Shown here: positions 1-60,646 of the stretch, one piece after another
Layout of the letters: every line of letters begins with the position of its first letter
Numbering within the stretch: position 1 is the first letter of the stretch
Origin: an uncultured Elusimicrobia bacterium
GTDB lineage: Bacteria > Elusimicrobiota > Elusimicrobia > FEN-1173
Direction: 5' to 3'
Length of the DNA stretch: 64,000 bases
Assembly (NCBI GenBank): GCA_964484135.1
Contig: CAZAEL010000003.1
Location: 4,306-68,305 of the forward strand
Position numbers and translations under genes: made by a program
Notes under the pieces: generated by a model
Database searches by the model: none
Told to the model about the DNA's origin: nothing
What the model saw: only the letters and a program-made list of their open reading frames with translations

Positions 1-2
1 AC

Positions 3-3000
3 GTGTTCGTGCCCATCCTGGCGGAGCTTGACCGGCGGGACGACATCCCTCCCCTCATCAAGGCCCTGGCCATCGAACGATTGCAAATGATGGCCAACGA
101 CGGAGGCTCCGTGGTGGCCGCCACGCTTGACAAAGCCAGCGGGACCTTCGTCCCCAAGCCCTTGGTGCCCAACCTGATCTACCGGGACGGCCGATGGGTG
201 CCTTTGAAGGACATCGCGGGCGACAGGGCCAATCGGGCCAGGGTCTGGGACGTCAGCGTGCAGCAGTATCTCCTCCAGCTTTTCCGCGAAAAACGGTTTG
301 CCGAGCACCTCGGGGTCACCGACGACAATCGCGCCGAGTTCGAGGCGTTCGTCCTGAGCCTGCATCTCTCCCCGGACGATATCGACGACATGATGTCCAT
401 GGACCCCCTGAAGTTCCAAACGGTGCGCCATTCCATGTCCTGGGCCCTGGAACGGATGCTGAAGAACGCCCCCGCCGGCCCCTTCGCGGACAAATTCAAC
501 GCCATTTTCCAGCAGAGAGCCTCCACCCTCATGAAGTTGAACCGCGTCTTCGAAGGGGAAAACCGCGCCATCATCGATGAGCTTGTCGAAGAGGTTTACG
601 ACCACGAGCAGGCGCCGCCGTCCCTGGAGATGTCCGCGGAGGAGCGCCGCAAAGACGTGGTGTTCACCGCGGAACAGGAAATCATGGCCGCCCTCATGCT
701 CCTTCACTACAAGGAAAGCGCGGGCGTGTTCGGTTCCGTCTCCGGCGACGAGATGGACAAAAAGAAGCACATCCGTCAGATCGCGCCCCTGGCGGAATTG
801 ATTTTGAAGCGGGTTTTCTGGACCAACGTCAGCAACGGCATTGACAAGGCTTTCGTGGACTTGAAAAAAGAAGGGCGCTTCAATTATCAGGACGATCAGG
901 GGCCGGTGGCCCATGCCGTAAGGGCCGGGCCCGGATACTTCAACTTGGTTCTCGCCAGCGCCTCCAAGCCCAATTTCGTGGAAGGCATGCTGCAGTCCTT
1001 CGTGACCTTCCGGAACACCGTGGTGATCATGGGCGACAGCATCACGGACCAGGGCAAGTTCCCGGCCGTGTTCTCCGCCCCGCTCCCTTCCGGCATGACG
1101 GCCAAACAGAGAAGGGCCCTCCAAAACATCGAAAGAAAGAAAATCAAGCTTTCCGAAAAAGACGGCGTCCTGACCTTTGAATTCGAAGGGCACATGACGG
1201 CCCAGACCTATGAGCGCCTGAAGAGGTTCTCCGTCGGCGGCCCCGACGTCCAGAGCCGATGGCTTGCCGCGCTGGAGAAAATGTACGGCGCCTCCCGGGC
1301 CATGTACCAGGAGCGGATCGTGCTGCGGGTCCTCCTGGGCGGATTGATCGAGATGAACACCCTGGAGCGGGCCAAGCGCATGGCCGAGGGGCTCCTCCGC
1401 ACCATTTACTACAACGCCCGACTCAACATCATGCGGAACGGGTTCGAGGGTTTGCGCTGGGGCCCCACCGCGTTCTACCCCATCATGCGGTCGATCATCG
1501 ACGTGTCGAAGGGGCGGTACGCCTTCCGTTGGGAGGGGGATTGGGAGCAAAACCGCGACCGGTATGCCCGCCGCATGATCACGTGGCTGAACCAGCACAA
1601 GACGGAAGGCTTCCTCTTCGTGCGCCCGCGGAAACTGAAAAAAGTGGACGACCCCTGGAGGAACGAAAAGAGCCGGGCCGCAAGGCTGGCCGAGGCCCTT
1701 CGTTCCGTCCTCCGCGGAGACGCGGCTTCCGCCGCGGAATTCGAAAAGGGAGGATACGGAAAAAAAGGCTACGGCGTGAAGGCCGGGAGCGCGGTGGACG
1801 GTTCTTTCGCCCTGGAGGGGGAGGAGGGGTATTTCACCGAGCGGGGCCGGGAGGTCTTCCTGAAGACGGTGGAAAGCATGCGGGCCTTTTTCCAGAGGAG
1901 GGAACAGCGCCTCGGCAAACCGATCAAGCTGGTCATCAAACCGGGCATCGGCGGTCAGCACACCCCCTTCCAGGGCATTGCGGGCGCCTTTGAGGTGATA
2001 GATCCGGCCACGGGCAAGGTGGTGGGGGAGTACGAGCTCGGCAAAGACTACGGCCGGTCCCTGGCGGAGTTGTTGAAACGGCACGGCGCCGATTGGGACC
2101 AGGTGGCGGTCATCCCCAGTTCCAAGTCCGGTTCCACGGACGAAACCATGCTGATCTTCGAAGACGTCCTTTACGCTTTGCTGTTGAACGTGGCGGAATC
2201 CCGACAGGCGGGGACGGGGAAGGCTTTCGCCGATCTGGTTTTCGACGTTTTGAACGAGGTGAATTTCAGGGACGGACAGGAACGGTCCGGCAAGGACCTC
2301 TTCAAGGTGGACAGGGAACGCTTCGGCACGGACAGCCTGTTGGAGTTGATTCAGCAGCGGGCCCGGGAAAAGGGTCTCGGCCTGGAGGCGTCCCAGGTCA
2401 AGGACGTCCTCGGCACGGTCCTGGGCAACATGTTCTTTGAGACCACGGACCGTCCGTCGGAAAGCCGGCTTTCCGCTTTCGTGCGCAACTCGGGGCTGGA
2501 CAAGGCCCTGGGGGAGGACGCGCCGGGGTTCGGCGCCATGTTCGACAACGTGGGCGGACGCTGGACCGCGGACCTGCACATGATGACGTTCCTGGCGCGG
2601 CAGGGCACGCCGGAACAGGCGGAGGCTTATTGGGCCGCGCGGGAACGGGGGATGCGCCGGGTCCGCGAGGGGACCCATTTGGGCAACCGGCTGGGAGACA
2701 TGGTTTTGGATCAGGGCGTCACCGATATCGCCCTGGTGGTGCCGGACGAGCTTTTCTGGTTCGGCAAGTCCATCGAGCAGAATTTCAATGAAAGCGTCTG
2801 GCAGAACGGTTTCGCCAACCTGGTGGCCATCAAAGCCTCCCAATGGGAGGCCCAGAAGGACAATTACGCCCACCGTCCCGGGCATCTGGTCATTAACCTC
2901 TCGGACGAGGACATGGACGGTTCCGTCCGGTCCGTGGAGGTGGCGGCGCCCAAGATCAAGGAAGGGGCCGACGTCGAGGAGGTCCTGCTGGGTTTCGCGG

Positions 3001-6000
3001 AGTTGACCACCACTTTCTATGGCATGACCAATACCGTGGGGAACCGGCTCTTGGTTCGGGCGCTGGACGCGGCCCGGCGCATCGCGGCCCAGGGCGATTA
3101 CGCGGCGGTGGCGGCCCTGGTCGCGGTGGAGGGGGCCAAACCCGAGGAGATTCAGAGGACGGAGGCCGACCTCCGGCGGAGATATCCCGCGCCGGCGGCC
3201 CTGGCCGAGGCGTTTTCCGTCGATGTCCTCGATCTCAACGACCTGGACCACCCGGCCACGCGGATTGTGCAGAAGAACCTGTTCCTGCGCCAACCCTACG
3301 TGGAGCTGGGCAAGGGCCTTCTGGAGGAAACGCTCAAGACGGCGCAGAAGGAGAAAACCCTGGAGGCGGATTTGTCGCGGATTCAATCCCAGGCTTCGGA
3401 AGGCCGGGGAGAGACCAACGTCCCGGGCCTGCGGATGCCCGCCGACGGTGTCAGGGACATGAAGGTCCTGGCGGACCTGATCCGCCAGGCCGCGGACCAC
3501 GCCCGGGAGACGGGCCGCAAGTTCGTGCCCTTCATCTATCTGGAGGGGGAAAAGTTCCAGGAACTCAGGGATGCCTTGACCCGGATGGGGTACGAATGGG
3601 TCCTGCAGGGGACCGGGGACCAGCACATCAGTTATCAGCAGGTCCTGGCCCAGCCACAGAAGTACCTGCCTTTCATCATTTCCATGGTGCCGCCCGCGGA
3701 CGTGACCCCGGGCCGGCCGGCCATCGGTTTCGCCAAAGGATACCTCCACAACGTCAGCCCCCATGTGGTGCGGGACTTTTTCGCCCATGCTTCTTACCGG
3801 GCCCTCACGGAACTCAGGGCCGCGCAGGGGGGGCGGGGCGTTTTCCTGCGTTTGTCCGACACGCCGGAGAACGTGCAAATGATAAAGGACGCGGCCAAAG
3901 AGGCTTCGCCCGCGCCTTTGGCCGGCGCCTGGCACGCGGGCGAGGTGGCGGAGCTCTTGGCGCGGGAAGTGCTGCCCAGGGCCGGCCGCGCCACGCTGGC
4001 CCTGACCACCCTGGGCCTGTCGGAAATCCTCGCGCTGCTCCGGGACGTGGAACGGGGCGTGAGCGGGGCCGAGGACCGTTTGCTGGGCGAGATTCAAAAA
4101 CTGCCCGAGAACGTCCAGTTCCTGCTCCTGCACAACGTGGCCCTGGCCCACACCGTCAAATTGAGCGGCGCTTCCGAACAGGGTTTGCGGGACAAAATTT
4201 CGGAGGTGGCCGGCAGGATGGGCGCCACGGTCGGCTCCGTCCAGAGGGAGGGAGACGCCCTCCTGGTGACGCTCGATCGCGATGGGCGGGCCGCGTCCGT
4301 CCGGATTTCCCTTTCGGACGTGCCTTCCTTCTTCGAACGCACGGACTTGCACGCTTTGGGCACCATCCGCGGCCCCACGGATCAGGACCCGTCTTACTAT
4401 GGAATGACCCTCCAAGCGGCCCTGTTCGACCGCCGCCTCAATTCCGCCGATGATTTCTCCAATCTCGAAGACGTCCTTGAACATGAATTCCGCGAAATTT
4501 TCATCTGGACTCAAGATCCCAACATGGGGCCGGAGCAGGCCCATCAAGCCGCTATGTCCGAGCAAGACGCGGGGGCGCCGGCCCGGATCGAGGCGGCCTT
4601 GGACGAACTGGTCGAGAGGCAGGGTCAGGCCCCGGGGTGGGTCCATCTCCAGGGATTCGTAAACAGGGAGCTGTGGGGCCGGTTCTTCCAGAACCTTCGG
4701 TCCCTGCCATACAACATCCGGGTCTATGTCCTTTTCAACGTGGCCCGCGGGAACCGGCTCTTTTTCCGGGCCAACGACCGGCGGATCTTGGCGGACGCCT
4801 TCCGGCAGATCGGAGTGCAAGCGAAGGAGATGCGGGGCACCGGTCGGGAAGCCATCTATCGGGTCAATCTGGAGGGGCGGGAGGCGGTGGTTCGAGTGTC
4901 CCAAACAAACGTGCTGCCTTTCCTGCGGGGCCCCACCACCCTGGCGGTCACCAGCGGGCCCGGCGGCGACGCCTATCAGATCGTCTTGAGCCGGGCGCTT
5001 TTTGACAGCGGCGACCGGCAAGCGGTGGCCGATCTGTTGCGTTTCCAAATGGCCAAGATCATCGCTCATCGGGGCGGCCAGGCCCCGGATGCGGGTTTCT
5101 CGTCCGCTTTGGGGCAGGTGGGCCATCGGCCCGTTGAGAGAGCTGTGGAATCGCAGCAACGGCACGCGGCGAGTCCCCGGGTTCCGGGCCTTTTGGAAGC
5201 CGTCAGCGGGAACGCGGAGGCGCGGGAACGGCTGATCGAGGCGGCCCAGCCCGCCATGGATTACCTCTCTCAAGGGGACCTTTTCCCCGGCCAGACGGGG
5301 ACCGATGTGGGCGCCTTTGTGGTCATGGGCAACCCGGACCTGGAAGCTCTGGTCCTTTTTGCCCAGGATTGGGTCCGTGGGGATCAGAAACCGCCCATCG
5401 TGCTGGTGGGCGGCCGCGGACGGGGGACGCCGGTCCTGGCGAAGAAGGCCCTCCTGCGGTACGGCGGACGGCTCTCTGCTCGGGAGCGCGCGGTTCTGTC
5501 GAACACGGATGCGACGGAGACCGAGATCATGCGGATCGTCTTTGAAAAAGAAGGGGTGCCCGCCGGTTCCCTCCATCCGGAGGCCGTGCCGTCAGGCAAC
5601 ACCCGAACCAACCTGCAGAACGCCCGGAGCGTCCTGGAGAGCCTGGGGATTCCGTCGAGCGTGAACGTGGCGCTGGTGACCTCTCCGCGCCTGTTGCGCC
5701 GGGCCCAGGCCACGGCCCGCACAGAGTGGAAAGAAAATGGGTGGAACGCGCTTCGGTTCCGATCCTACCACCCGGATTTGACCCAACTTTCTGACGCCGA
5801 GCTGGTGGAGATGCTGAGCTATGTGGTGGGGGTCCCCGCTTCCGTCTTGCAGAGGTTCCCCGGCGCAGACCTCAACACGGGCAATGAGTTCCGGGGAATC
5901 GCGGACATGGAAGGAAGGAAGGACAGGCCGTTAAGAAAAGACGAGGCCGCTCTTTTGAATCAAACCTTGGACGCTTTTGAGCAGTTCCTCCGGGATCTTC

Positions 6001-7178
6001 CCGTGGCCGCGGATTCCGACAGGCGGACCCTGGCCCTGGCCGATGCGCCTTCCGAGGGGGTGGCGGAGTTGGTCGCGCCGGTGCGGAGGATGTTGCGGCG
6101 CCTGGATCTGCCGCGGGACGTCTCCTCCGCCCTGACCGATGAGGACATGGACCGGCTTCTGCGGGAACTGCGGCTGTGGTCCCTCTTCTTCGGCCCGGAG
6201 CAGGCGGCCTTGACGGAGCCCTCCGTGATGCAAGAGCAGTTGTTGCGCGGCCTGCCCTATGCGGCGGACGCGGAACTGCCGGTGATCGCGGACCGCCTGG
6301 CGGCCCTGAACCTGTCGGGTCGTACGGATGAATTGGGCCGCATGGAGAAATTCGCCGAAGCCGTGGAAAAGGACGAGAAGGTCCTGGAGGCCTTCGCGCC
6401 TTTTCTGGTCAAGGCCCTCCTGGAGGAGGGGCGGCGACAGGGACAGTTGGGCGGATCTCTTGAGACAAGCCAAAGGACCCATTTCCAGCCTTTGGCCGAG
6501 ACCCTTTTGGCCCTGGGCGCCCGGGCGGGCTTGAGGGCGGACGAAGGTTACGAAAATTTCGTCGAATGGCTCAGGGCCGTTTATGTGGACGGTTTCAAGC
6601 AAGGACAGGAACGGTTGGCCCTTTTGACACAGGACGTGGTGGGCAAAGGCAAGCCCGCCACCACCGCCGATCCCGCCCGGATGAACGTGAGCGTTTTCCA
6701 CGTGACGGGGGTGGATTCGGCGGCGGAGATCGACCATCTGGCCGATATCTACGCCCAAAAGTTCGAGAACGCGGACCGACAGCAGCTGGACAAGTTCGGC
6801 GCCGTGATCTTCGCCCACCCCGGCGTGGATGCGGAAAAGCTCAAGGGGCGGTTCCTGCAGAAGCTCCGGGACAAGGGCCTTGATCTGGGGGTGGTCGGAA
6901 AAAACACCGTGGTGCTTCCGGCCGTGGGCAGCCTGGTGGGAGAACGGATCGACATGGACCGCATGTTCCAGGCCATCCAGGAGAGCTTCAAGGCCCAGAA
7001 CGCCACCGTGGGCCAGATGCAGATCTTCAGCGCCCAGCCCACCCTTTTCATCGAATCCTGGCGCCAGGACATCGCCTGGGTGCTTTACCAGGTCCTGCCG
7101 GACGGCAAGCTCCTGCAGGCTTCCCGCAGCGTGGAGGAGAGCCTCAGGGCCATCCTCTACATCCAGCAACAGGCCTAA
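3..7178 (+). CDS. Giant multidomain protein (5'-truncated, >2391 aa) with a PGI-like double-SIS domain and a YdcF/DUF218-like domain; function unknown
   Basis: Uninterrupted 7.2 kb frame, so not a GC artefact. PGI-like motifs appear at nt ~1900-2700: VIKPGIGGQ (PGI: IGIGGS), VIPSSKSGSTDETM (PGI: SKTFTTQETM), DNVGGRWTADLHMMTF (PGI: GGRYSLWSAIG). YdcF/DUF218-like motifs appear at nt ~5395-5720: IVLVGGRGRG, SGNTRTNLQNA, VALVTSPRLLRRA. The remaining ~1700 aa have no recognisable family. Confidence 0.6.
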   Translation: MFVPILAELDRRDDIPPLIKALAIERLQMMANDGGSVVAATLDKASGTFVPKPLVPNLIYRDGRWVPLKDIAGDRANRARVWDVSVQQYLLQLFREKRFAEHLGVTDDNRAEFEAFVLSLHLSPDDIDDMMSMDPLKFQTVRHSMSWALERMLKNAPAGPFADKFNAIFQQRASTLMKLNRVFEGENRAIIDELVEEVYDHEQAPPSLEMSAEERRKDVVFTAEQEIMAALMLLHYKESAGVFGSVSGDEMDKKKHIRQIAPLAELILKRVFWTNVSNGIDKAFVDLKKEGRFNYQDDQGPVAHAVRAGPGYFNLVLASASKPNFVEGMLQSFVTFRNTVVIMGDSITDQGKFPAVFSAPLPSGMTAKQRRALQNIERKKIKLSEKDGVLTFEFEGHMTAQTYERLKRFSVGGPDVQSRWLAALEKMYGASRAMYQERIVLRVLLGGLIEMNTLERAKRMAEGLLRTIYYNARLNIMRNGFEGLRWGPTAFYPIMRSIIDVSKGRYAFRWEGDWEQNRDRYARRMITWLNQHKTEGFLFVRPRKLKKVDDPWRNEKSRAARLAEALRSVLRGDAASAAEFEKGGYGKKGYGVKAGSAVDGSFALEGEEGYFTERGREVFLKTVESMRAFFQRREQRLGKPIKLVIKPGIGGQHTPFQGIAGAFEVIDPATGKVVGEYELGKDYGRSLAELLKRHGADWDQVAVIPSSKSGSTDETMLIFEDVLYALLLNVAESRQAGTGKAFADLVFDVLNEVNFRDGQERSGKDLFKVDRERFGTDSLLELIQQRAREKGLGLEASQVKDVLGTVLGNMFFETTDRPSESRLSAFVRNSGLDKALGEDAPGFGAMFDNVGGRWTADLHMMTFLARQGTPEQAEAYWAARERGMRRVREGTHLGNRLGDMVLDQGVTDIALVVPDELFWFGKSIEQNFNESVWQNGFANLVAIKASQWEAQKDNYAHRPGHLVINLSDEDMDGSVRSVEVAAPKIKEGADVEEVLLGFAELTTTFYGMTNTVGNRLLVRALDAARRIAAQGDYAAVAALVAVEGAKPEEIQRTEADLRRRYPAPAALAEAFSVDVLDLNDLDHPATRIVQKNLFLRQPYVELGKGLLEETLKTAQKEKTLEADLSRIQSQASEGRGETNVPGLRMPADGVRDMKVLADLIRQAADHARETGRKFVPFIYLEGEKFQELRDALTRMGYEWVLQGTGDQHISYQQVLAQPQKYLPFIISMVPPADVTPGRPAIGFAKGYLHNVSPHVVRDFFAHASYRALTELRAAQGGRGVFLRLSDTPENVQMIKDAAKEASPAPLAGAWHAGEVAELLAREVLPRAGRATLALTTLGLSEILALLRDVERGVSGAEDRLLGEIQKLPENVQFLLLHNVALAHTVKLSGASEQGLRDKISEVAGRMGATVGSVQREGDALLVTLDRDGRAASVRISLSDVPSFFERTDLHALGTIRGPTDQDPSYYGMTLQAALFDRRLNSADDFSNLEDVLEHEFREIFIWTQDPNMGPEQAHQAAMSEQDAGAPARIEAALDELVERQGQAPGWVHLQGFVNRELWGRFFQNLRSLPYNIRVYVLFNVARGNRLFFRANDRRILADAFRQIGVQAKEMRGTGREAIYRVNLEGREAVVRVSQTNVLPFLRGPTTLAVTSGPGGDAYQIVLSRALFDSGDRQAVADLLRFQMAKIIAHRGGQAPDAGFSSALGQVGHRPVERAVESQQRHAASPRVPGLLEAVSGNAEARERLIEAAQPAMDYLSQGDLFPGQTGTDVGAFVVMGNPDLEALVLFAQDWVRGDQKPPIVLVGGRGRGTPVLAKKALLRYGGRLSARERAVLSNTDATETEIMRIVFEKEGVPAGSLHPEAVPSGNTRTNLQNARSVLESLGIPSSVNVALVTSPRLLRRAQATARTEWKENGWNALRFRSYHPDLTQLSDAELVEMLSYVVGVPASVLQRFPGADLNTGNEFRGIADMEGRKDRPLRKDEAALLNQTLDAFEQFLRDLPVAADSDRRTLALADAPSEGVAELVAPVRRMLRRLDLPRDVSSALTDEDMDRLLRELRLWSLFFGPEQAALTEPSVMQEQLLRGLPYAADAELPVIADRLAALNLSGRTDELGRMEKFAEAVEKDEKVLEAFAPFLVKALLEEGRRQGQLGGSLETSQRTHFQPLAETLLALGARAGLRADEGYENFVEWLRAVYVDGFKQGQERLALLTQDVVGKGKPATTADPARMNVSVFHVTGVDSAAEIDHLADIYAQKFENADRQQLDKFGAVIFAHPGVDAEKLKGRFLQKLRDKGLDLGVVGKNTVVLPAVGSLVGERIDMDRMFQAIQESFKAQNATVGQMQIFSAQPTLFIESWRQDIAWVLYQVLPDGKLLQASRSVEESLRAILYIQQQA

Positions 7179-7254
7179 TCCAACAGACATTTCAGGTCTT
7201 TTTTCAACGGGCTCGGGGCTTCCCGCCGGGGAGGGGACTTTTTGTCCGGCCGGT

Positions 7255-7283
7255 TTGACAAGCCATCCCCGTTAAAATACAAT
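7255..7283 (+). promoter_or_regulatory. Near-consensus sigma70 promoter upstream of icd: TTGACA-N17-TACAAT
   Basis: TTGACA at 7255-7260, a 17-nt spacer, then TACAAT at 7278-7283. A GGGAGAAGGA Shine-Dalgarno sits before the ATG at 7336. The AT-rich island stands out in a GC-rich genome. Confidence 0.5.
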
Positions 7284-7335
7284 CGAAAAAATCAATCTTT
7301 TCATCTATACTTCAAGGGAGAAGGAAACAACCCGA

Positions 7336-8414
<1,079 letters not shown>

Positions 8415-8418
<4 letters not shown>

Positions 8419-8915
8419 CGAAAACCCGGGAACAGGCGCCGGCCCCCGAGGGCGCGGCGTCCTTGAACGAGGAGATCACCTGCGTCATCGTCAAACCGGA
8501 CGGCGTGGGCAAGCGGGTGGTGGGGAAGATCATCGACCGGTTTGAGAGCGAGGGGTTCCAGCTCCTGGCCATGAAAACGGTGCGTCCCACGCCCGCCTTG
8601 ATGGAGGAGTTCTACGCGGAGCACAAGGGCAAGCCCTTTTTCCCGCCGTTCCTGCGTTTCGTGACCTCCGGTCCCTTGGTGGTCACGGCCTGGCGCGGGG
8701 CCGGCGCGGTGGCCCGCGTGCGGCAGATCATCGGCGCCACCAACTCCCCGGAGGCCGCCCCCGGGACCCTGCGCAGGACCTGGGGCACGGACAACCGCCG
8801 CAACCTGGTGCACGCCTCGGATTCCTCCAAGAGCGCGGCGCGGGAGGTGGCTTTCTTTTTCTCGCCGGAGGACGCGGCCCCCTACGACGGGGACGCCTGG
8901 CAGAAAGCGGGGTAA
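8415..8915 (+). CDS. ndk: Nucleoside diphosphate kinase
   Basis: [12 protein letters not shown]-like N-terminus ([21 protein letters not shown]), NLVHASDS active-site His region. Its ATGA start overlaps the icd stop. Confidence 0.85.
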
Positions 8916-8921
8916 GAGCGG

Positions 8922-9350
8922 ATGGCGGGCGGCAGTTCGGACAAACGCATCGTCCTGATCGCGGACGACGAGCCCGATTCCCTGGAGATGCTGAAGATCC
9001 TGGTGGAGCGTCACGGCCACGAGGTGGTGACCGCGGCCAACGGCCGGGAGGCCATCGACCGGGTGGTGGACCTGCAGCCGGACCTGGTGCTCCTGGACGT
9101 CATGATGCCCGGGGTGGACGGCGCCACGGTCTGCCAGCACATCAAGAGCAACGACATGCTCAAGCGGATCAAGGTGATCCTGTACACCGCCAAAGAGAAG
9201 GTGCAGGGGCGGGAGGCCGCCAAGAAAGCCGGGGCCGACGCCTTCCTGGCCAAACCCTTTGAGCCGGAGGAGCTCTGGGAGGTCATGACCCGCCTTCTGG
9301 CCCAACAGGACAAAGAGAGCCCCAAGCTCGTCAAAAAGCTGGGGTTGTAG
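8922..9350 (+). CDS. Stand-alone response regulator receiver (CheY-like) protein
   Basis: RIVLIADDEPDSLEML ... LVLLDVMMPGVDG ... KPFEPEEL REC-domain pattern. No output domain. Confidence 0.8.
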   Translation: MAGGSSDKRIVLIADDEPDSLEMLKILVERHGHEVVTAANGREAIDRVVDLQPDLVLLDVMMPGVDGATVCQHIKSNDMLKRIKVILYTAKEKVQGREAAKKAGADAFLAKPFEPEELWEVMTRLLAQQDKESPKLVKKLGL

Positions 9351-9391
9351 AAACCGTCGGACGGGATTGACCGGACCAAACCAAGGCCCCC

Positions 9392-9439
9392 GTTCCGGCG
9401 CCGCGACACCCCCTCCGGGGAGCGTTGGCGCGCCGGAAC
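9392..9439 (+). repeat. Perfect 10-bp inverted repeat (GTTCCGGCGC ... GCGCCGGAAC) enclosing an inner CCCC/GGGG hairpin; structured element after the receiver gene
   Basis: Arms at 9392-9401 and 9430-9439 are exact reverse complements. No U-run follows, so a canonical intrinsic terminator is unlikely. Confidence 0.4.
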
Positions 9440-12523: not shown

Positions 12524-13831
12524 ATGGAGCCACAGCAGACAGCCACCCCCACAGCCCCTCAGCGCCAGCTGAACGCGGCCACGCTCAGCAAAGCCACCAT
12601 GGCCGAGCTCATCAAGGTGTCCGAGGAATTGAAAGCCGGTCCCGTCTCCGGCCTGCGCAAGCAGGAGCTCATCGCCAAGATCCTGGAGGCCCAGGCCCGC
12701 AACTCCGGCGTCATCACGGACCAGGGGGTTCTGGAGGTGCTGCAGGACGGCTTCGGGTTCCTCCGCAGCCCGGACTACAACTATCTGCCGGGGCCGGACG
12801 ACATCTACATCTCCCCTTCCCAGATCAAGAAGTTCAGCCTGCGCAAGGGGGACACGGTGTCGGGCCAGGTGCGCCCGCCCAAGGACCAGGAGCGTTTCTT
12901 CGCCCTCCTGCAGGTGCACGCCATCAACGGGGTCAGCGTGGAGAACATCCAGAACCGCCCCCTGTTCGACAACCTGACGCCGCTGTACCCGCAAAAGCGG
13001 ATCGTGCTGGAGACCAAGAAGGACGAGATCAACACCCGCGTCCTGGACCTGGTGGCGCCCATCGGCAAGGGCCAGCGCGGCCTGATCGTGGCCGCGCCCC
13101 GTACGGGCAAGACCATTTTTCTCCAGAAGATCGCCAACGCCATCACCACCAACCACCCCGAGGTTTACCTCATCGTCCTGCTCATCGACGAACGCCCCGA
13201 AGAGGTCACGGACATGCAGCGGAGCGTCAAGGGCGAGGTCATCTCCTCCACCTTCGACGAGCCCGCGGACCGGCACGTGCAGGTGGCCGAGATGGTGATC
13301 GAGAAGGCCAAGCGCCAGGTGGAGCACGGCACGGACGTGGTGATCCTGCTGGACTCCATCACCCGCCTGGCCCGCGCGTACAACACCGTCACCCCGTCCT
13401 CGGGACGGGTGCTCTCCGGCGGTCTGGATTCCAACGCGCTCCAGCGGCCCAAGCGGTTCTTCGGCGCGGCCCGGAACATCGAGGAGGGGGGGAGCCTCAC
13501 CATCATCGCCACCGCCCTGGTCGAAACCGGCAGCCGCATGGACGACGTCATCTTCGAGGAGTTCAAGGGCACGGGCAACAGCGAGGTGTACCTGGACCGG
13601 AAACTGGCCGACCGCCGCATCTTCCCCGCCATCGACATCACCCGGTCCGGCACCCGCAAGGAGGAGCTCCTGCTCTCCGCGGACGAGTTGAACAAGGCCT
13701 GGATCCTGCGCAAGGTCCTGGCGCCCCTCTCGCCCACGGACGCCATGGAACTTCTCATCGAGAAGCTTTCCGCCACCAAATCCAACAAGGACTTCCTCAA
13801 GTCCATGGAGCTTTCCAGCATGGAGAAGTGA
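12524..13831 (+). CDS. rho: Transcription termination factor Rho
   Basis: N-terminal RNA-binding region, Walker [16 protein letters not shown], and the full Rho ATPase core ([13 protein letters not shown] ... [15 protein letters not shown]). Confidence 0.95.
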
Positions 13832-13898
13832 CCGGCCGCCCCGCGGCTGGGCGCTTCTGAGCGGCGTTGGCCGCTGAAGGGTCTTCCGCCCTCCTTTC

Positions 13899-13933
13899 CG
13901 GCGCCTTTTCCAGGCGCCTCCCCGATGTTTTTT
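13899..13933 (+). terminator. Putative intrinsic terminator downstream of rho
   Basis: CCGGCGCC-TTTTCCA-GGCGCC hairpin at 13899-13918, followed 9 nt later by TTTTTT at 13928-13933. Confidence 0.4.
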
Positions 13934-14132
13934 GGTCCTCGGATACGGACGGGTCGTCCGCCGTTCGCGGCGCCCCTGCGGGTCCGGGGCTCGGGCCGAC
14001 CCTCGCCCGGGCTTGCGACAAACCTGGGCGCATTCGCGCCCGTCGCATACGGCTGCCGCTGGCGGCCGCGACCCGATTCGCCGCGACCGCGCCCTCTGGA
14101 AAAACCCGGTTTTCCGACGTAAACTTAAAAAG

Positions 14133-15077
14133 ATGAAGAGATCCCATCATCCCATCGACGCCCTGCTCCTGGGGGTGCTTCTGGCCGTGCTGGGGGTCGT
14201 CCTGTTCCCGGGCGGGAAGGCCTCTTTCGCCCTCCAGGCCGCCCAGCCCTTTCCCAACCCCTACCTGGCGACCGCGCAGGCCGGCCCCCTGGAGCCTTCC
14301 CCGGAGGTGTACCAGCGCCTGGGGAGGATGGGCCGGATCGTGGTGGGCCAGTACGTGACCCGGCCCGGCGACACCCTGGCCTCCGTGGCCAAGACCTTCG
14401 GGACCACGCCCACCTCCCTGCGGAGCACCAACCGCCTTGAGTCCCCGGCCCTGACGCCGGGCAAGACCCTGCTGGTCCATCCCGGCGAAGGGATGATCCA
14501 CCAGGTGCAGGAGGTCAAGGGGGCGGCCGAGGACCTGTCGCGCATCGCGGAGCGGTACAACCAGGCCCCGGAGCGCATCGCCCGCGCCAACCGTCTGCCC
14601 GGCGTGGCGCTCCTCTCCTCCCGGTGGCTTCAGGCCGGCGACCTGCTTTTCATCCCCCGGGCGCGGCTGCGGTTTTCCGAGTATGACTTCCCCGTCTCCT
14701 GGGTCCGCGGCAAGCGGTTCATTTCCTCGGGCTTCGGCGTGCGCCGCCACCCCATCTACCGCCACAGGAGCTTCCACAAGGGGTGGGACATGCCCCGGCC
14801 CTACGGATTCCCCGTGAAAGCGTCCCGGGACGGCCGGGTCGTCTTCGCCGGCTGGCGCACGGGGTACGGCCGCCTCGTCATCCTGAAGCATTCGGGCGGC
14901 GTCCGGACCTGGTACGGCCATTTGTCCAAGGTGACGGTCACGCCGGGGCAGACGGTCAAGAAGGGGCAGGTGGTGGGGAAGGTGGGCAGCACGGGCATCG
15001 CCACCGGCCCCCACCTGCACTTCGAGGTGCGGGACAGGTACGGAAACTCTTTAAATCCGAAGAAATTTTTGTTTTAA
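14133..15077 (+). CDS. M23 family metallopeptidase with LysM domain(s) (murein endopeptidase-like)
   Basis: N-terminal TM/signal segment HPIDALLLGVLLAVLGVVLF. LysM-like GQYVTRPGDTLASVAKTF. M23 motifs HKGWDM ... HLHFEV. Confidence 0.85.
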   Translation: MKRSHHPIDALLLGVLLAVLGVVLFPGGKASFALQAAQPFPNPYLATAQAGPLEPSPEVYQRLGRMGRIVVGQYVTRPGDTLASVAKTFGTTPTSLRSTNRLESPALTPGKTLLVHPGEGMIHQVQEVKGAAEDLSRIAERYNQAPERIARANRLPGVALLSSRWLQAGDLLFIPRARLRFSEYDFPVSWVRGKRFISSGFGVRRHPIYRHRSFHKGWDMPRPYGFPVKASRDGRVVFAGWRTGYGRLVILKHSGGVRTWYGHLSKVTVTPGQTVKKGQVVGKVGSTGIATGPHLHFEVRDRYGNSLNPKKFLF

Positions 15078-15110
15078 TATAGGTTCCGCCAGCCAGTCGT
15101 GAACGAACGG

Positions 15111-15144
15111 CCAAAGCCCTTGCGGGGGGTTTGGTTTTTTTATT
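15111..15144 (+). terminator. Putative intrinsic terminator after the M23 peptidase gene
   Basis: CCAAAGCCC-TTGC-GGGGGGTTTGG imperfect stem followed by TTTTTTTATTT. Confidence 0.4.
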
Positions 15145-15181
15145 TGGCCGGCGCAAAGGTTCCCAAGGAAAGGACGTTATC

Positions 15182-15556
15182 ATGAAAGAAGGCATTCATC
15201 CCCGTTACGCGGAGGCGGTCGTGGAGTGCGCCTGCGGCAACCGCTTCGTCACGCGTTCCACGCTCCCCAAGATCCGTCTGGAGATCTGCTCCAACTGCCA
15301 TCCCTTTTACACGGGCAAGCAGAAATTGATGGACACGGCCGGCCGCGTCGAGCGGTTCGAGAAGCGCTTCGCCAAGACGGGCGGAAAGACCGTGGTGCGC
15401 AAGCCCACCGCCACCAAGGCCGCCCCCAAGGTCTCCAAGTCCACCAAGAAAGTCCTCCGGAACACGCCGCGGGCCATGCCCCCGGCCGACAAGCGGGGTT
15501 CGGCCGAAAAACGGCCGGCCAAGCCCGCCGCCAAACCGGCCACGCCCGCGCGTTAG
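15182..15556 (+). CDS. rpmE: 50S ribosomal protein L31 (Zn-ribbon type) with ~55-aa Lys/Ala/Pro-rich C-terminal extension
   Basis: MKEGIHPRY ... CACGNRF ... [12 protein letters not shown] ... [10 protein letters not shown] core, then a tail [26 protein letters not shown]...[12 protein letters not shown]. Confidence 0.85.
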
Positions 15557-15571
15557 GGGTTTTTCTCGATG

Positions 15572-15613
15572 GATCGCGTCTCCGCCCGGAAGGGGGAGGC
15601 GCGATCTTTTTTT
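15572..15613 (+). terminator. Intrinsic terminator after rpmE
   Basis: 12-bp stem GATCGCGTCTCC / GGAGGCGCGATC (one G-U) with a GC loop, followed by TTTTTTT at 15607-15613. Confidence 0.7.
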
Positions 15614-15636
15614 GCCCCGTCCCCGGACGGTTTTAG

Positions 15637-16728
15637 GTGACCCCCATGGACCCGCGCTACGCCCAGGTGGAAGAGGAATACCATGCGCTGCAGAAGCGCC
15701 TGGCCGATCCCGCTTTGTCCCACGGGTCCGAGGCGTACCAGCGGGCGGCCCGCGAATTCAAGCGGCTGGAGCCCATCGTCCAAAAGATTGAAACCCGCCG
15801 CCGGCTGGCCGACGAACTCAAAAACCTTCAATCCTTGAAAGAGAGCCCGGAACGGGAGATGCGCGAGCTGGCCCTGTCCGAGGGAGAGGCCCTCCTGGCG
15901 CGCCTGGCCGAAACGGACCGGGAGCTGGACGAGGCGCTCACCCCCCGGGACCCGGAGGACGGCCGGGACGTGATCATGGAGATCCGCGCCGGCACGGGCG
16001 GGGACGAGGCCGCCCTCTTCGCCGGGGACCTGTTCCGCATGTACGGCCGGTACGCCGCGGAGAAGGGCTTCGCGGTGGAGCTCTATTCCAGCCACCCCAC
16101 GGGCCGGGGGGGATTCAAGGAAGTGGTTTTCGGCGTGAAGGGGCAGGACGTGTTCCGCCACTTCAAGTTCGAGCGGGGGGTGCACCGGGTGCAGAGGATC
16201 CCCGTGACCGAGGCCTCGGGCCGCATCCATACGTCCACCGCCACGGTGGCGGTGCTGCCGGAGATGGACGAGGTGGAGGTGGAGATCAACCCCGCGGACC
16301 TGCGCATCGACACCTACCGCGCCAGCGGCGCCGGGGGCCAGCACGTCAATCGGACGGACTCGGCCGTGCGCATCACCCACCTGCCCACGGGCGTGGTGGT
16401 GGCCTGCCAGGACGAGCGGAGCCAGATCAAGAACCGGGCCAAGGCCATGAGCCTGCTGCGGGCCAGGCTCTACCAGCAACGGTTGGAGCAGGCGGCCACG
16501 GAGCGGCGGGACCTGCGGCGTTCCCAGGTGGGCACGGGCGAGCGCAGTGAAAAGATCCGCACGTACAATTTTCCCCAGGACAGGATCACGGACCACCGCA
16601 TCAACCAGAATTTCCACAGCCTGCCGGCCGTCATGGAAGGCCAGATGGACGCCATCGTGAAGGCCTGTTGGGCGTGGGAGCGGGACCAGAAGGCCGCGGA
16701 AAGCGGCAAGGCGGGGGTTCCCCGATGA
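15637..16728 (+). CDS. prfA: Peptide chain release factor 1
   Basis: PVT tripeptide (QRIPVTE) and GGQHVNRTDSAVRITHLPTG motif. Same rpmE...prfA-prmC neighbourhood as seen in Bacillus. Confidence 0.95.
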   Translation: MTPMDPRYAQVEEEYHALQKRLADPALSHGSEAYQRAAREFKRLEPIVQKIETRRRLADELKNLQSLKESPEREMRELALSEGEALLARLAETDRELDEALTPRDPEDGRDVIMEIRAGTGGDEAALFAGDLFRMYGRYAAEKGFAVELYSSHPTGRGGFKEVVFGVKGQDVFRHFKFERGVHRVQRIPVTEASGRIHTSTATVAVLPEMDEVEVEINPADLRIDTYRASGAGGQHVNRTDSAVRITHLPTGVVVACQDERSQIKNRAKAMSLLRARLYQQRLEQAATERRDLRRSQVGTGERSEKIRTYNFPQDRITDHRINQNFHSLPAVMEGQMDAIVKACWAWERDQKAAESGKAGVPR

Positions 16729-17624
16729 GCGGTCGGCCGACCCTTTCCGCCGAGCAACGAAGCCTGGAAGAGGTCTTGCGGCAGGTCGTCCTGCGGCTTC
16801 GGGAGGCCCGCATCCCCAACGCCGAGGGCGAGGCGAGGGAGCTTTTGGCCGCGGCCCTGGGGTGCGCGCCCTTGTCTTTGTTTCTGAAGGGCCGGGAGCC
16901 TCTGCCGGAAACGGCGACGGAAAGAGTCGGGGCGTTGTTGGAAGAACGCCTGAGGCGGCGGCCCCTGGCCTACGTTCTGGGAGAGTGGAGTTTCCTGGAT
17001 TTGCGTTTGCGCGTGACCGAGGACGTCCTGATCCCCAGGCCGGAGACGGAAGAGCTCCTGGAATGGGCCGCCCAAACGCTGGCGCGGGAGTCCTCCGCGG
17101 GGCGGTCTTTGGGGCTGGCGGACGTGGGCACGGGCGCGGGGGGGCTGGCCCTGGCCCTGGCCCGGCGCTTTCCGGAGGCCTTGTTGTGGGCCACGGATGT
17201 TTCGACCAAGGCCCTGGCCGTGGCCCGGGAAAACGCGGCGCGGCACGGTTTGTCCGGACGGGTGCGATTTCTGGAAGGCGACCTGTTGTCCCCGCTCCTG
17301 TCGCGGGGGCAGGCTTTCCTGGACGGCGTCCTGGCCAACCTGCCGTACGTGGCGTCCGACGACATGCCCCGGCTTGAGCCGGAGGTGCTCTGGGAGCCGC
17401 GGCTGGCCCTGGACGGCGGCGCCGGCGGTCTGGAGATCGTTCGGAGGTTCCTGCCCCAGGCCCTGCGGGCCCTGCGGCCCGGCGGGACGGTTTTCCTGGA
17501 GGCGGGGTTGGGGCAGGCGTCGGTTCTGGCCCGGGACATGGCCGGCGCGGGGTTTCAGGACGTGAGGACGGAGAAAGACATGAACGGCATCCTTCGCTTT
17601 TTGCAGGGGACGAAACCGCGATGA
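16725..17624 (+). CDS. prmC: Release factor glutamine N5-methyltransferase PrmC (HemK)
   Basis: DVGTGAGGLALALA SAM motif and NLPY (NPPY variant). ATGA overlap with the prfA stop. Confidence 0.85.
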   Translation: MSGRPTLSAEQRSLEEVLRQVVLRLREARIPNAEGEARELLAAALGCAPLSLFLKGREPLPETATERVGALLEERLRRRPLAYVLGEWSFLDLRLRVTEDVLIPRPETEELLEWAAQTLARESSAGRSLGLADVGTGAGGLALALARRFPEALLWATDVSTKALAVARENAARHGLSGRVRFLEGDLLSPLLSRGQAFLDGVLANLPYVASDDMPRLEPEVLWEPRLALDGGAGGLEIVRRFLPQALRALRPGGTVFLEAGLGQASVLARDMAGAGFQDVRTEKDMNGILRFLQGTKPR

Positions 17625-18883
17625 TCCGCCTCGACTCCTTTTTGATCCGGGGGGGCTATAAGCTCAAAGGCGCGGTGCGCGTTTCGGGCTCCAAGAACGC
17701 CGCCCTGCCCTGCCTCTTCGCCACGCTCCTGACGGACGAGGAGTGCCTCATCGAGAACGTGCCGGACCTGCAGGACATCCGCACCGCGGTGTCGCTCCTG
17801 GAACAACTGGGCAAGCGCGTGGTGCGGTCCCCGTCCCGCGTGCGGGTCCTGCCCCGCCGGAAGCTGACGCACCTGGCCTCCTACGACCTGGTGCGGCGCA
17901 TGCGCGCCAGCGTGGTGGTCATGGGGCCGCTCCTGGCCCGTCTGGGCCGGGCCCGGGTGTCCCTGCCGGGCGGCTGTTCCATCGGCGCCCGCCCGGTCAA
18001 CTATCACATCCAGGCCCTGGAGCGGCTGGGCGCCTCCCTCCGCGTGGAGGAAGGCTACGTCACGGCCAGCGCGCCGCGCCTGCGCGGGGCCGCCATCCGC
18101 CTGCCCTTCCCCAGCGTGGGCGCCACCGAGAACGTGATGATGGCCGCGGTCCTGTCTCCGGGCCGCACCGTCATCCGCAACGCGGCCCGGGAGCCGGAGA
18201 TCCAAGATTTGGCCGCCTGCCTCCGGTCCATGGGGGCCCGCGTCCGCGGGGAGGGGACCTCCGTCATCCGCATCGAGGGCGTTCCCCGGCTGCACGGGGC
18301 CCGGCACCGGGTCATCCCGGACCGCATCGAGGCCGGCACCTTTTTGGTGGCCGCGGCCATGACCAAGGGGCGGGTGCGCCTCCGGGACGCGGCCCCGGAA
18401 CACCTGACCAGCGTGCTGCAGGCCTTGAAGCGCGCGGGCCTCGGAATTCGGGTGCGGGGCGCGGAGATCGAGGCCGCCTGGACCCGGCCCCTGCGGCCCC
18501 TGTCCGTCCGGACCCGGGTGTACCCCGGTTTTCCCACGGACATGCAGGCCCAGTGGATGGCGCTCATGTGCCTGGCCAAGGGACGCAGCCGCATCACCGA
18601 ATCCATTTTCGAGAACCGTTTCCTGCACGCCCAGGAGCTGACGCGCATGGGCGCGCGCATCGAGATCCGGGGAAACACCGCCCTCATCGAAGGGGGGAAC
18701 CGGCTGTCCGGCTGTCCGCTCATGGTGTCGGATCTGCGGGCCGGCGCGGCCCTGGTTCTGGCCGGGCTGGCGGCCCAGGGCCGGACCACCGTTTTGAGGG
18801 TGTACCACCTGGACCGGGGCTATGAACGCATGGAGCGGAAGCTCCGGGCCCTGGGCGCGCGGATCCGGCGCGTACCCCGGTAG
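17621..18883 (+). CDS. murA: UDP-N-acetylglucosamine 1-carboxyvinyltransferase
   Basis: MIRLDSFLIRGGYKLKGAVRVSGSKNAALP N-terminus with full EPT-fold repeats. ATGA overlap with prmC. Confidence 0.9.
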   Translation: MIRLDSFLIRGGYKLKGAVRVSGSKNAALPCLFATLLTDEECLIENVPDLQDIRTAVSLLEQLGKRVVRSPSRVRVLPRRKLTHLASYDLVRRMRASVVVMGPLLARLGRARVSLPGGCSIGARPVNYHIQALERLGASLRVEEGYVTASAPRLRGAAIRLPFPSVGATENVMMAAVLSPGRTVIRNAAREPEIQDLAACLRSMGARVRGEGTSVIRIEGVPRLHGARHRVIPDRIEAGTFLVAAAMTKGRVRLRDAAPEHLTSVLQALKRAGLGIRVRGAEIEAAWTRPLRPLSVRTRVYPGFPTDMQAQWMALMCLAKGRSRITESIFENRFLHAQELTRMGARIEIRGNTALIEGGNRLSGCPLMVSDLRAGAALVLAGLAAQGRTTVLRVYHLDRGYERMERKLRALGARIRRVPR

Positions 18884-18906
18884 AATTGATATAATTTGGG
18901 GCCAAT

Positions 18907-20076
18907 TTGCGAGACAAAGTCGAAAAAATTCTGGATCAGGTAAAGAGGGGCGGAGACCGGGCCCTGTCCGCGCTTTTGCGGCGGTTCGACGGGGTTTCCC
19001 TGCCGCCCCGGCGGTTCCGCGTGCCCCTGGACCGCGCCCGGCGGGCCCTCCGGGACCTGCCCGCGGACCGGCGCCGGGCCCTGTCCGAGGCGGCCGCCCG
19101 CATCCGGCGGTTCCATGAGGCGGAACGCCGGCGTTTGCCCCTGTCCTGGAAGGAAACCGCCGGCGGCCTCACCGTGGGGCAGCGCTGGACCCCGGTGGAC
19201 TCGGCCGGCGTGTACGTGCCGGGCGGACGGTTCGCGTACCCCTCCACGGTCTTGATGACCGCGATCCCGGCCAAGGCGGCGGGCGTGAGGCGGGTGGTGA
19301 TGACCACCCCGCCCCGGCACCTCACGCAGGAGGTCCTGGCCGCGGCGGCCCTGGCCGGCGTGGACGAGATTTTCCAGCTGGGCGGGGCCGCCGGCGTGGC
19401 GGCCCTGGCCTTCGGCACCCGCACGGTGCGGCCCGTGGACCTGATCGCTGGGCCGGGCGGCGCCTGGGTCACGGAGGCCAAGCGTCAGGCCTTCGGTTAC
19501 GTGGGCATCGACGCCCTGGCCGGGCCCAGCGAGATCGTGCTCCTGGCGGACGCCTCCGCGCCCGCGGCCTGGGCCGCGGCCGACATGATGGCCCAGGCGG
19601 AGCACGACCCCCTGGCCCGGGCCACCCTGATTTCGCCGGACGCCCGCGTTTTGGCCAAGGTCAGGAAGGCGGTCCAGGCCCGGTTCCGCGGCCAGTGCCG
19701 GTTCCTCAAGGCGCGGAGCTGGAAGGAAGCCGTGAAAAAAGCCGATGAACTGGCGCCGGAACACCTGTCCCTGATGGTCAGGCGGCCGGAAAGCCTTTTG
19801 CCCGGCATCCGGCACGCGGGCGCGATTTTCCTGGGCCCCTCGTCGCCCGTGGCCGCGGGGGACTATTGGGCCGGGCCGTCCCACGTCCTGCCCACGGGCC
19901 GGGCCGCCCGGTTTTCCTCCGGGCTTTCGGTCCTGACGTTTTTGAAACGTTCCAGCCTCATCCGGCTGTCCCCGGCGCTGTTGCGCCGCAAGGCCGGGGC
20001 CGTGGCCCGTCTGGCCCGGCTGGAGGGGCTGGAACAACACGCCGCCTCCGTTGAGGCGCGCCTGAACGCCAGATAA
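18907..20076 (+). CDS. hisD: Histidinol dehydrogenase (apparent TTG start)
   Basis: HisD family body (YVPGGRFAYPSTVLMTAIPAKAAGV ... AQAEHDPLA). Codon 18907-18909 is TTG. A TATAAT box lies at 18890-18895. Confidence 0.85.
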   Translation: MRDKVEKILDQVKRGGDRALSALLRRFDGVSLPPRRFRVPLDRARRALRDLPADRRRALSEAAARIRRFHEAERRRLPLSWKETAGGLTVGQRWTPVDSAGVYVPGGRFAYPSTVLMTAIPAKAAGVRRVVMTTPPRHLTQEVLAAAALAGVDEIFQLGGAAGVAALAFGTRTVRPVDLIAGPGGAWVTEAKRQAFGYVGIDALAGPSEIVLLADASAPAAWAAADMMAQAEHDPLARATLISPDARVLAKVRKAVQARFRGQCRFLKARSWKEAVKKADELAPEHLSLMVRRPESLLPGIRHAGAIFLGPSSPVAAGDYWAGPSHVLPTGRAARFSSGLSVLTFLKRSSLIRLSPALLRRKAGAVARLARLEGLEQHAASVEARLNAR

Positions 20077-33556: not shown

Positions 33557-33600
33557 GACACATCCCGGTTCCGCGGCCGTCCCGCCCCTTTCCGGGGCTT

Positions 33601-51193: not shown

Positions 51194-51212
51194 TCCGATA
51201 CGGGGAGCTTTT

Positions 51213-52763: not shown

Positions 52764-52782
52764 GGACGATGGAGACCCTTCC

Positions 52783-54392: not shown

Positions 54393-54394
54393 GC

Positions 54395-56435: not shown

Positions 56436-56448
56436 TTAAGGAGAAAAC

Positions 56449-58691: not shown

Positions 58692-58701
58692 CCAAAAAGC
58701 C

Positions 58702-60644: not shown

Positions 60645-60646
60645 CC

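Follow-up and report, generated by a model that had tools for sequence, protein, structure and literature searches.

This work concerns a giant gene whose 3' part opens a 64,000-nucleotide stretch of DNA, called the window in the following, from an uncultured Elusimicrobia bacterium (assembly GCA_964484135.1, contig CAZAEL010000003.1). This part encodes the C-terminal 2,391 amino acids (aa) of a mosaic multi-enzyme megaprotein, and one of its modules is a cassette of divergent phosphoglucose isomerase (PGI) type. The divergent PGI family is new, possibly also its displaced catalytic-His loop, while the class of giant architecture is already known. On balance we favour the reading that the cassette is probably active on glucose-6-phosphate (G6P) and fructose-6-phosphate (F6P) and that the modules of the chain are co-localised or kept at a fixed stoichiometry. 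The modules follow each other in the order HAD-like phosphatase module, divergent PGI, two copies of a domain termed X, YdcF-like DUF218 domain and C-terminal domain, and these cassettes would have been shuffled independently. The PGI cassette would most likely still interconvert G6P and F6P by the canonical Lys/Arg/Glu/His/Lys chemistry, its place beside other sugar-phosphate enzymes may allow a local hand-over of intermediates or a fixed enzyme stoichiometry, and the megaprotein would face the cytoplasm. The analysis demonstrates the fold, the membership of the family, the conserved residues, the partners in fusions and the mosaic build; the enzymatic activity with its substrate, the HAD assignment, the place in the cytoplasm and any gain from channelling or co-localisation are inferred.

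The PGI fold was recognized by structure prediction and by comparison of the whole family. For residues 555-1305 a confident AlphaFold (AF2) model was obtained (pLDDT 89.6, pTM 0.90), in which two alpha/beta domains of SIS type have the arrangement known from PGI. In a Foldseek search of the PDB with this model the best 50 matches were all glucose-6-phosphate isomerases (probability 1.00); they spanned 450-660 aligned columns with about 13% identity, and the lowest E-value was 1.5e-7. A profile of the cassette family run against the PDB returned PGIs as three of the top five matches (E 0.06-1.2), in register at GIGG and SK..T.ET, and a 41-sequence family hidden Markov model (HMM) compared with E. 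coli PGI showed the same motif order at GIGG/SK..T.ET, VGGR and VELGK. Two distant relatives were scored on the Pfam PGI model (cutoff 22 bits), of which P0099 clears the cutoff with 24 bits and P0095 reaches 16.6 bits. On these grounds, i.e., the AF2/Foldseek matches, the register of family profile and HMM, and the passing of the Pfam cutoff by P0099, the predicted PGI fold is regarded as sound.

Direct searches with the window sequence gave no such result. Neither PF00342 nor any other Pfam or NCBIfam model matched the PGI-like segment, in the whole protein or excised, even at E<=10, and phmmer with the PGI-like part against the PDB returned no PGI; hhalign of the cassette family with the single E. 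coli PGI aligned the GIGG region alone. The PGI-like family escaped a word-indexed search with all 2,391 aa and was recovered by an exhaustive HMMER search with the excised residues 591-1300. An initial annotation, made from the sequence alone, had described a PGI-like domain with both SIS halves at nt ~1900-2700 and had named a non-significant HMM match as the result that would speak against it. The fold stood up to the structural comparison, while significance in direct HMM and sequence searches was lacking, which is outweighed by fold, profile and transitive homology. All motifs quoted by the annotation were located at their positions, but the three given for the two SIS halves (VIKPGIGGQ, SKSGSTDETM, GGRWTADL) lie together within the first (small) SIS domain, and the module is about 750 aa long, three times the span supposed (Table 1). 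Nor does the cassette stand alone: it belongs to a large, conserved and unannotated family.

The exhaustive search returned 100 cluster representatives, 70 of them at E < 1e-30, with 40-63% identity. Most of these are embedded in proteins of 2,000-7,944 aa, so that the giants reach at least 7,944 aa. In a scan of species-representative genomes the cassette was found in about 60 genomes, mainly of Candidatus Omnitrophota and Elusimicrobiota and including an Endomicrobium; single matches occur in Goldiibacteriota, Sumerlaeota and 'PVC group' metagenome-assembled genomes (MAGs). Among 54 species loci, about 14 carry a stand-alone cassette gene of 677-800 aa, whose products bear the label 'hypothetical protein' and match no Pfam family. 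In most of the others the cassette is part of an open reading frame (ORF) of 1,600 to >7,300 aa; the largest sizes are capped by the 10 kb flanks. Beyond the cassette none of the loci shares any region with the window protein. The cassette is the sole common part of these megaproteins and is still 40-63% identical, which suggests that it is itself under strong purifying selection. Within a limited keyword check of the literature, no recognition of the PGI-like proteins as a distinct family was found.

The natural fusions of the cassette were used as a guide to its substrate. Phosphoglucomutase (PGM) precedes the cassette in proteins of about 1,300 aa, of which there are several examples, transaldolase follows it, and 6-phosphogluconate dehydrogenase/6-phosphogluconolactonase precedes it; inside several giants PGM immediately adjoins the cassette. 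Each of these partner enzymes is a single step away from G6P/F6P, and the fusions point to these sugar phosphates as substrate. In a separate locus, L034 (Elusimicrobia MAG CAZDML010000020.1, 2983-9028), PGM is followed by two tandem PGI-like cassettes on the same strand.

In canonical PGI the active site is formed by S209/K210/T211/T214, R272, Q353/E357, H388 and Q511/K518 (rabbit numbering). The motif order is Glu, His, Lys, the His loop lies about 30 residues after the Glu, and the loop with this catalytic His is supplied by the other subunit of the dimer. Motif-equivalent candidates were assigned in the window cassette (Table 1), and in an alignment of 13 diverse family members (A2; 38-61% identical to the window copy) K708, R853, Q926, E930, Q1097, K1104 and H1208 are all invariant. 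Most of the candidate motifs are in register with E. coli PGI, while the equivalence of EQNFNES to QQxxMES was drawn by eye and is unsupported by any alignment. The order in the cassette is Glu (930), Lys (1104), His (1208) and departs from the canonical one. For dozens of members, phmmer gave weak matches that map residues 365-415 of E. coli PGI onto the C-terminal subdomain of the cassette, and a shuffle test of the local alignment of the His loop gave p~0.01, which is suggestive of a His loop displaced to a C-terminal position. A more far-reaching proposal, which we hold only tentatively, is that the cassette is a self-contained PGI: with the His loop moved to the C-terminal subdomain of the same chain the classical dimer would be dispensable, the enzyme would be portable into megaproteins, and the family could be the 'missing' PGI of the numerous Omnitrophota and Elusimicrobiota genomes whose glycolysis seems incomplete.

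Alternatively, the PGI fold may have a different job, either as another sugar-phosphate isomerase or as a sensor of sugar phosphates, without catalysis, by which the adjoining modules are regulated. The SIS/PGI superfamily indeed holds other phosphosugar isomerases and binding domains, the cassette is just about 13% identical to real PGIs and about 200 aa larger than any of them, its His loop is in a non-canonical position and the Pfam PGI model fails on it. However, the best 50 structural matches are all true PGIs and not other SIS proteins, the PGI-specific motifs (the QQ..ES-like EQNFNES, VELGK and GxxxQH) are invariant, and every fusion partner is one step from G6P/F6P; moreover, canonical PGI was found in no more than 67/176 complete Omnitrophota genomes, all with lower glycolysis, and this leaves a gap that the cassette family could fill. 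We consider a different job unlikely, and a cassette active on G6P/F6P is preferred.

The frame that carries the cassette is open at the 5' edge of the window and runs on the plus strand through 2,391 sense codons to a stop at 7176-7178, and across its length some 68 stops are expected from the base composition (P about 1e-30). Its length by itself is not proof of a gene, because the codon-aligned antisense frame (window 1-5591, minus strand) is likewise free of stops over 1,863 codons. This shadow ORF exists because the giant gene nearly avoids TTA, CTA and TCA, with 2 uses among its 2,391 codons, and it is a warning that ORF length by itself is unreliable in the source genome. The plus frame was identified as the gene by its codon-position GC content (0.66/0.42/0.82), by protein homology at four separate regions and by a Logan assembly of run SRR8109491, which is 100% identical across window 4406-9430 and so includes the part from the DUF218 domain to the C-terminus. 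GC at third codon positions is 0.75-0.87 in every 150-codon block, and there is no frame switch. The initial annotation of one real giant gene was borne out by these results; its statement that the frame 'cannot be a GC artefact' goes too far where it draws on length by itself, in view of the antisense shadow frame.

An assembly or frameshift artefact, in which several ordinary genes were fused into one frame by MAG errors, is thought of because the source is a metagenome-assembled contig and codon bias alone yields long stop-free frames, as the 1,863 antisense codons show. It is highly improbable, as the third-position GC is uniform in one frame without a switch, the SRR8109491 assembly is identical from DUF218 to the C-terminus, and dozens of unrelated MAGs hold the cassette in ORFs of 1,600 to >7,300 aa. 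In addition, P0164, a protein from an Elusimicrobiota MAG, independently has a layout of X, enzyme, X and C-terminal domain, and the module borders within the giant frame are continuous, with neither stops nor gaps.

At its 5' end the gene continues beyond the window, as the initial annotation had also stated. Homology to two giant database proteins, P0001 (3,672 aa) and P0002 (3,739 aa), begins at residue 1 of the fragment, mid-way through a conserved module; the window thus opens inside this HAD-like module and the giant gene must extend upstream. By analogy with P0001 and P0002, possibly 2,600-3,000 aa more lie there. A scan of genome contigs with the HAD-like module gave no match, and in a metagenome scan with it the P0002 locus was the only match. 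Downstream, leuB starts at 7336, after a terminator-like hairpin and a predicted promoter of its own (Table 1), from which it follows that the giant gene closes its own transcription unit.

Table 1. Features of the giant gene and its 3' flank in the window, with the evidence behind each assignment
Feature	Position (nt)	Strand	Evidence
3' part of giant gene, 2,391 codons plus stop	3..7178	+	open frame, codon-position GC, independent assembly, chance expectation
Putative C-terminal part of Cof-type HAD-phosphatase-like module with large cap	3..1052	+	P0001/P0002 homology, motifs, profile
Motif III Lys, K322	966	+	invariant, in register with YbiV/SupH
Motif IV GDSITD, D345/D349	1035-1049	+	invariant, in register with YbiV/SupH
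Conserved extension of ~200 aa after the HAD-like module	1053..1652	+	common to window protein, P0001 and P0002
Divergent PGI-like cassette, aa 555-1305, ~750 aa	1665..3917	+	homologs, AF2, Foldseek, profile, invariant residues, fusions
Candidate K708 in SSKSGSTDET	2124	+	motif equivalence
Candidate R853 in VGGRW	2559	+	motif equivalence
Candidates Q926/E930 in EQNFNES	2778/2790	+	motif equivalence by eye to QQxxMES
Candidates Q1097/K1104 in QPYVELGK	3291/3312	+	motif equivalence
Candidate H1208 in QGTGDQHISYQQ (QGTGDQH motif)	3624	+	motif equivalence, weak alignment
Domain X copy 1, aa 1306-1530, alpha/beta, motifs SLSDVPSF...DLHALGTIRGPT and LEHEFREI...PEQAHQ	3918..4592	+	internal repeat
Domain X copy 2, aa 1536-1730, more degenerate, HE..E motif lost	4608..5192	+	internal repeat, P0164
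DUF218/YdcF-like domain (Pfam core aa 1815-1908, nt 5445-5726)	5295..5777	+	PF02698
C-terminal domain, aa 2025-2391	6075..7175	+	common to Elusimicrobiota P0164
Terminator-like hairpin with T-run	7219-7243	+	pattern match only
Near-consensus sigma-70 promoter for leuB, TTGACA-17-TACAAT, 11/12 matches	7255-7283	+	pattern match only

From sequence comparison, and with moderate confidence, residues 1-550 are taken to be the C-terminal portion of a HAD-like module of the Cof type whose cap is very large. They share 31-35% identity with P0001 (residues ~3051-3565) and P0002 (~2644-3193), both of which carry, by eye, 'VDKDAT' (DxDxT) and 'ILTG(A/S)' just N-terminal to the aligned region; HAD motifs I and II of the window gene would lie upstream of the window and are seen only in these two proteins. 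A three-sequence profile (A1) found the sugar phosphatases YbiV (1rlm) and SupH (2hf2) as its sole PDB matches (E 0.8-0.9), and residues 1-550 gave no Pfam HAD match. The conserved extension that follows has invariant residues, e.g., L441-G446 and R518-R520, and no family match was found for it. P0001 and P0002 both start with a signal/anchor-like hydrophobic segment and both lack the PGI-like cassette. As separate observations, P0001 contains a SAM-methyltransferase domain (aa 745-881), both proteins have a weak GHMP-kinase-like motif (P0001 ~1544-1591, P0002 ~1190-1230), and 3' of the P0002 giant gene, in L001 (Ga0315338_1000003, 13616-19387), there is an unusual trio: a DEAD/DSHCT helicase of Ski2-like type, a protein with DUF6178 and a family-10 protein of the bacterial eRF1-like (baeRF) kind.

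Domain X is present in two homologous copies (E 1e-7); a self-BLAST of the entire protein missed the duplication, which was found by targeted pairwise comparison. The AF2 model of domain X is of moderate quality (pLDDT 75.5), and in the fold search with it no structure matched significantly, nor did any protease appear. The list was headed by Pol-beta-type nucleotidyltransferases, a reading that was not adopted in view of E~0.05 and a probability of <=0.33. The sole database relative of residues 1306-2391 is P0164, with the layout amylase C-domain, X, cytidylate kinase, X and C-terminal domain. The last 380 residues of P0164 align with residues 2025-2391 of the window protein up to the stop (34% identity, E 3e-45), and both end in '...QA*'. 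Thus, the ~1,700 aa that the initial annotation had called unrecognisable hold the HAD-like module, the duplicated X and a conserved C-terminal domain, which are common to other giant proteins. P0164 is annotated as '(d)CMP kinase', a label from one small domain of what is a fragment of a multi-enzyme protein. Its first X copy is broken up behind the 'AGAWHVGD' start by ~90 very hydrophobic residues (aa ~150-240), resembling 2-3 transmembrane helices.

Domain X bears on the possibility that the giant chain is a polyprotein, i.e., a translation vehicle that is cut into separate enzymes; X, or a protease further upstream, would mark the cleavage sites or carry out the cleavage. Autocatalytic cleavage by C39/S8 peptidase domains was proposed for Omnitrophota giants (West-Roberts et al., 2023), the cassette also exists elsewhere as a free protein of ~700 aa, and X, which has a conserved motif containing HE..E...H, lies at the borders between enzymes in two proteins. 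These observations have to be set against the 2,391 aa of the window protein, across which no peptidase family match was found, and against X itself, which resembles no protease in the structural search and has lost HE..E in copy 2. A polyprotein thus appears rather improbable, and a chain whose modules stay together is the preferred reading.

The YdcF/DUF218-like domain of the initial annotation was confirmed by PF02698, which matched above its gathering score (33-34 bits, cutoff 27.6) over profile positions 14-103 of 133. Over 169 aa the domain is 24% identical to E. coli YdcF (E 0.001 in a pairwise comparison), and it is much closer to YdcF than to SanA; a sequence search of the PDB with the DUF218 segment gave no match. 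For SanA it was shown that function needs a Thr-His-Glu triad of T125, H149 and E182 (PMC12176290). By motif, the position of SanA H149 is Leu1897 in the window protein and Met in YdcF, and the MAFFT placement of SanA is poor (13% identity), leaving the equivalents of T125 and E182 uncertain. YdcF is described in PMC12176290, with reference to Chao et al. (2008), as a cytoplasmic DUF218 protein that binds S-adenosylmethionine.

Several points weigh against the favoured multi-enzyme reading. No direct sequence method (Pfam, NCBIfam, PDB phmmer) names the window segment a PGI, and the TM-scores of the Foldseek matches are just 0.3-0.55, at an identity of ~13%. The His-loop motif follows the Lys motif, unlike in canonical PGI, and its assignment rests on a local alignment with p~0.01. 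The HAD assignment is built on sub-significant PDB matches (E 0.8-0.9) and on motifs seen by eye, and DUF218 has no known chemistry and has lost the residue aligned to the essential His of SanA. That the protein works as a single uncleaved chain is a supposition. Finally, the N-terminal part lies beyond the window and P0001 and P0002 begin with signal/anchor sequences, so that the cytoplasmic location is tentative.

The last point leads to the view that the protein is an exported or membrane-anchored predation giant of the Archaeovorin type, whose enzyme domains process prey-derived sugars outside the cell. Besides the hydrophobic starts of P0001 and P0002, it can draw on the prediction of extracellular glycolytic domains in Archaeovorins, for which it was cautioned that an overlooked transmembrane segment may mislead localisation (West-Roberts et al., 2023). 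In the 2,391 aa fragment, however, no hydrophobic segment of transmembrane grade was found, nor any adhesin, dockerin, lectin or repeat domain. Sugar-phosphate substrates are intracellular metabolites, and a 2026 preprint reads the class as having cytoplasmic domains (10.64898/2026.06.07.730766). We regard a predation giant as very unlikely, and the protein is probably a cytoplasm-facing multi-enzyme chain.

The class to which the protein belongs has been described. Omnitrophota commonly carry giant ORFs (PMC10066038). West-Roberts et al. (2023; 10.1101/2023.11.21.568195) reported giant-protein domains homologous to triosephosphate isomerase, glucose-phosphate isomerase, FBPase, PGM/phosphomannomutase (PMM) and aldolase, found very large genes in Elusimicrobiota too, and suggested proteolytic processing. 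Recently, a class termed 'multi-enzyme metabolic cluster' was defined in a catalogue with a threshold of >=10,000 aa; HAD, methyltransferase and PGM/PMM domains abound in this class, and most of its members are sequence singletons (10.64898/2026.06.07.730766). In this catalogue 94% of the proteins have transmembrane segments, alone or together with a signal peptide, and the multi-enzyme class is read as membrane-anchored with cytoplasmic domains; the same preprint reports canonical PGI in only 67/176 complete Omnitrophota genomes, in which lower glycolysis is universal. In the window protein five or more distinct modules follow one another within the 2,391 aa of a single frame and no repeat dominates, as expected of a multi-enzyme giant, with a visible length below the range of that catalogue. 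The view of the initial annotation that no described family has this architecture is therefore outdated, as multi-enzyme giants with PGI/PGM domains appear in both the 2023 and 2026 preprints. The combination of HAD-like module, divergent PGI, X, X, DUF218 and C-terminal domain was found in no other protein searched. Unique module combinations are the norm in the class, and at the level of architecture the window gene adds a new member.

The giant gene lies among housekeeping genes (leuB, ndk, response regulator, GGDEF protein, rho, prfA, murA, hisD and trpE), and for this reason phage, mobile-element and defence readings were dropped; PADLOC found no defence system, and no tRNAs were found in the window. 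The Rho protein encoded there falls into one cluster, at >=90% identity, with a Rho of an Elusimicrobiota MAG. Elsewhere in the window, at 51174-62259 on the plus strand, there is a tight nucleotide-sugar modification operon with an HldE-like PfkB kinase plus cytidylyltransferase, two 4,6-dehydratase/epimerases, thiamine pyrophosphate-dependent E1 alpha/beta subunits, a C-methyltransferase with a zinc-binding domain, a DmpF/DmpG-like aldehyde dehydrogenase/aldolase pair and a short-chain dehydrogenase/reductase, the product of which may be a branched or C-methylated sugar. Its GC content (0.59-0.63) is lower than that at 16-34 kb (0.67-0.72). A further ORF of 926 aa (32896-35676, plus strand) has a coding-like GC pattern and no Pfam match at E<=1e-5.

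The interest of the locus lies mainly in the cassette. It represents a conserved family of enzymes, present in 60 or more species-level genomes, that is labelled 'hypothetical protein' and missed by Pfam and NCBIfam. To recognize this family as PGI-like would alter metabolic reconstructions of Omnitrophota and Elusimicrobiota, in which upper glycolysis is often scored as incomplete. If true, a catalytic-His unit at a different position of the chain would be a clean natural re-wiring of an active site, and the small stand-alone members are easy to test. The same cassette at 40-63% identity and at differing positions in otherwise unrelated megaproteins is concrete evidence for the shuffling of working enzyme modules. 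The recurring X and the shared C-terminal domain in the Elusimicrobiota lineage offer handles on the assembly, anchoring or cleavage of the giants. The giant-gene phenomenon was already reported, and at that level the window is a further example and not a discovery.

Compared with known systems, the cassette has in common with canonical PGI (PF00342; E. coli Pgi, rabbit/human GPI, Bacillus PGI) the two-domain SIS-type fold, the candidate motifs for phosphate binding (GIGG, SK..T.ET), for ring opening/Arg (GGR), for the C-terminal Lys (VELGK) and, by eye, for the catalytic Glu (..ES), and, judged by its fusions, a like metabolic neighbourhood. It differs by its length of about 750 aa, in contrast to 400-560 aa, by ~13% identity, by several helical insertions and by its escape from PF00342 and NCBIfam, and its beta-loop(His)-alpha-beta unit would be C-terminal, after the Lys motif, and not ~30 residues after the Glu. 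In transaldolase-PGI and other PGI fusions, as in the window protein, PGI is joined to an adjacent sugar-phosphate enzyme. To our knowledge, the known fusions are two-enzyme proteins of <1,000 aa with a canonical PGI, whereas the window cassette is one of at least five modules in a protein of >2,391 aa. The HAD-like module has the motif III Lys and motif IV GDSxxD in register with the Cof-type sugar phosphatases YbiV/SupH, but its cap has several hundred residues and the PDB match alone is non-significant. With YdcF the DUF218 domain shares the motifs GG(I/R)G, sTN..NAR and (D/S)P....RR and the absence of a membrane anchor, and in contrast to YdcF it is embedded in a giant protein. With the Omnitrophota multi-enzyme giants and Archaeovorins the window gene shares a very long single ORF, many enzyme domains, shuffled modules and the predominance of singletons. 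These giants are found in Omnitrophota and related PVC-associated phyla, whereas the window gene is from Elusimicrobiota, in a genome of 61-65% GC, and its visible part is free of transmembrane, repeat and adhesin content.

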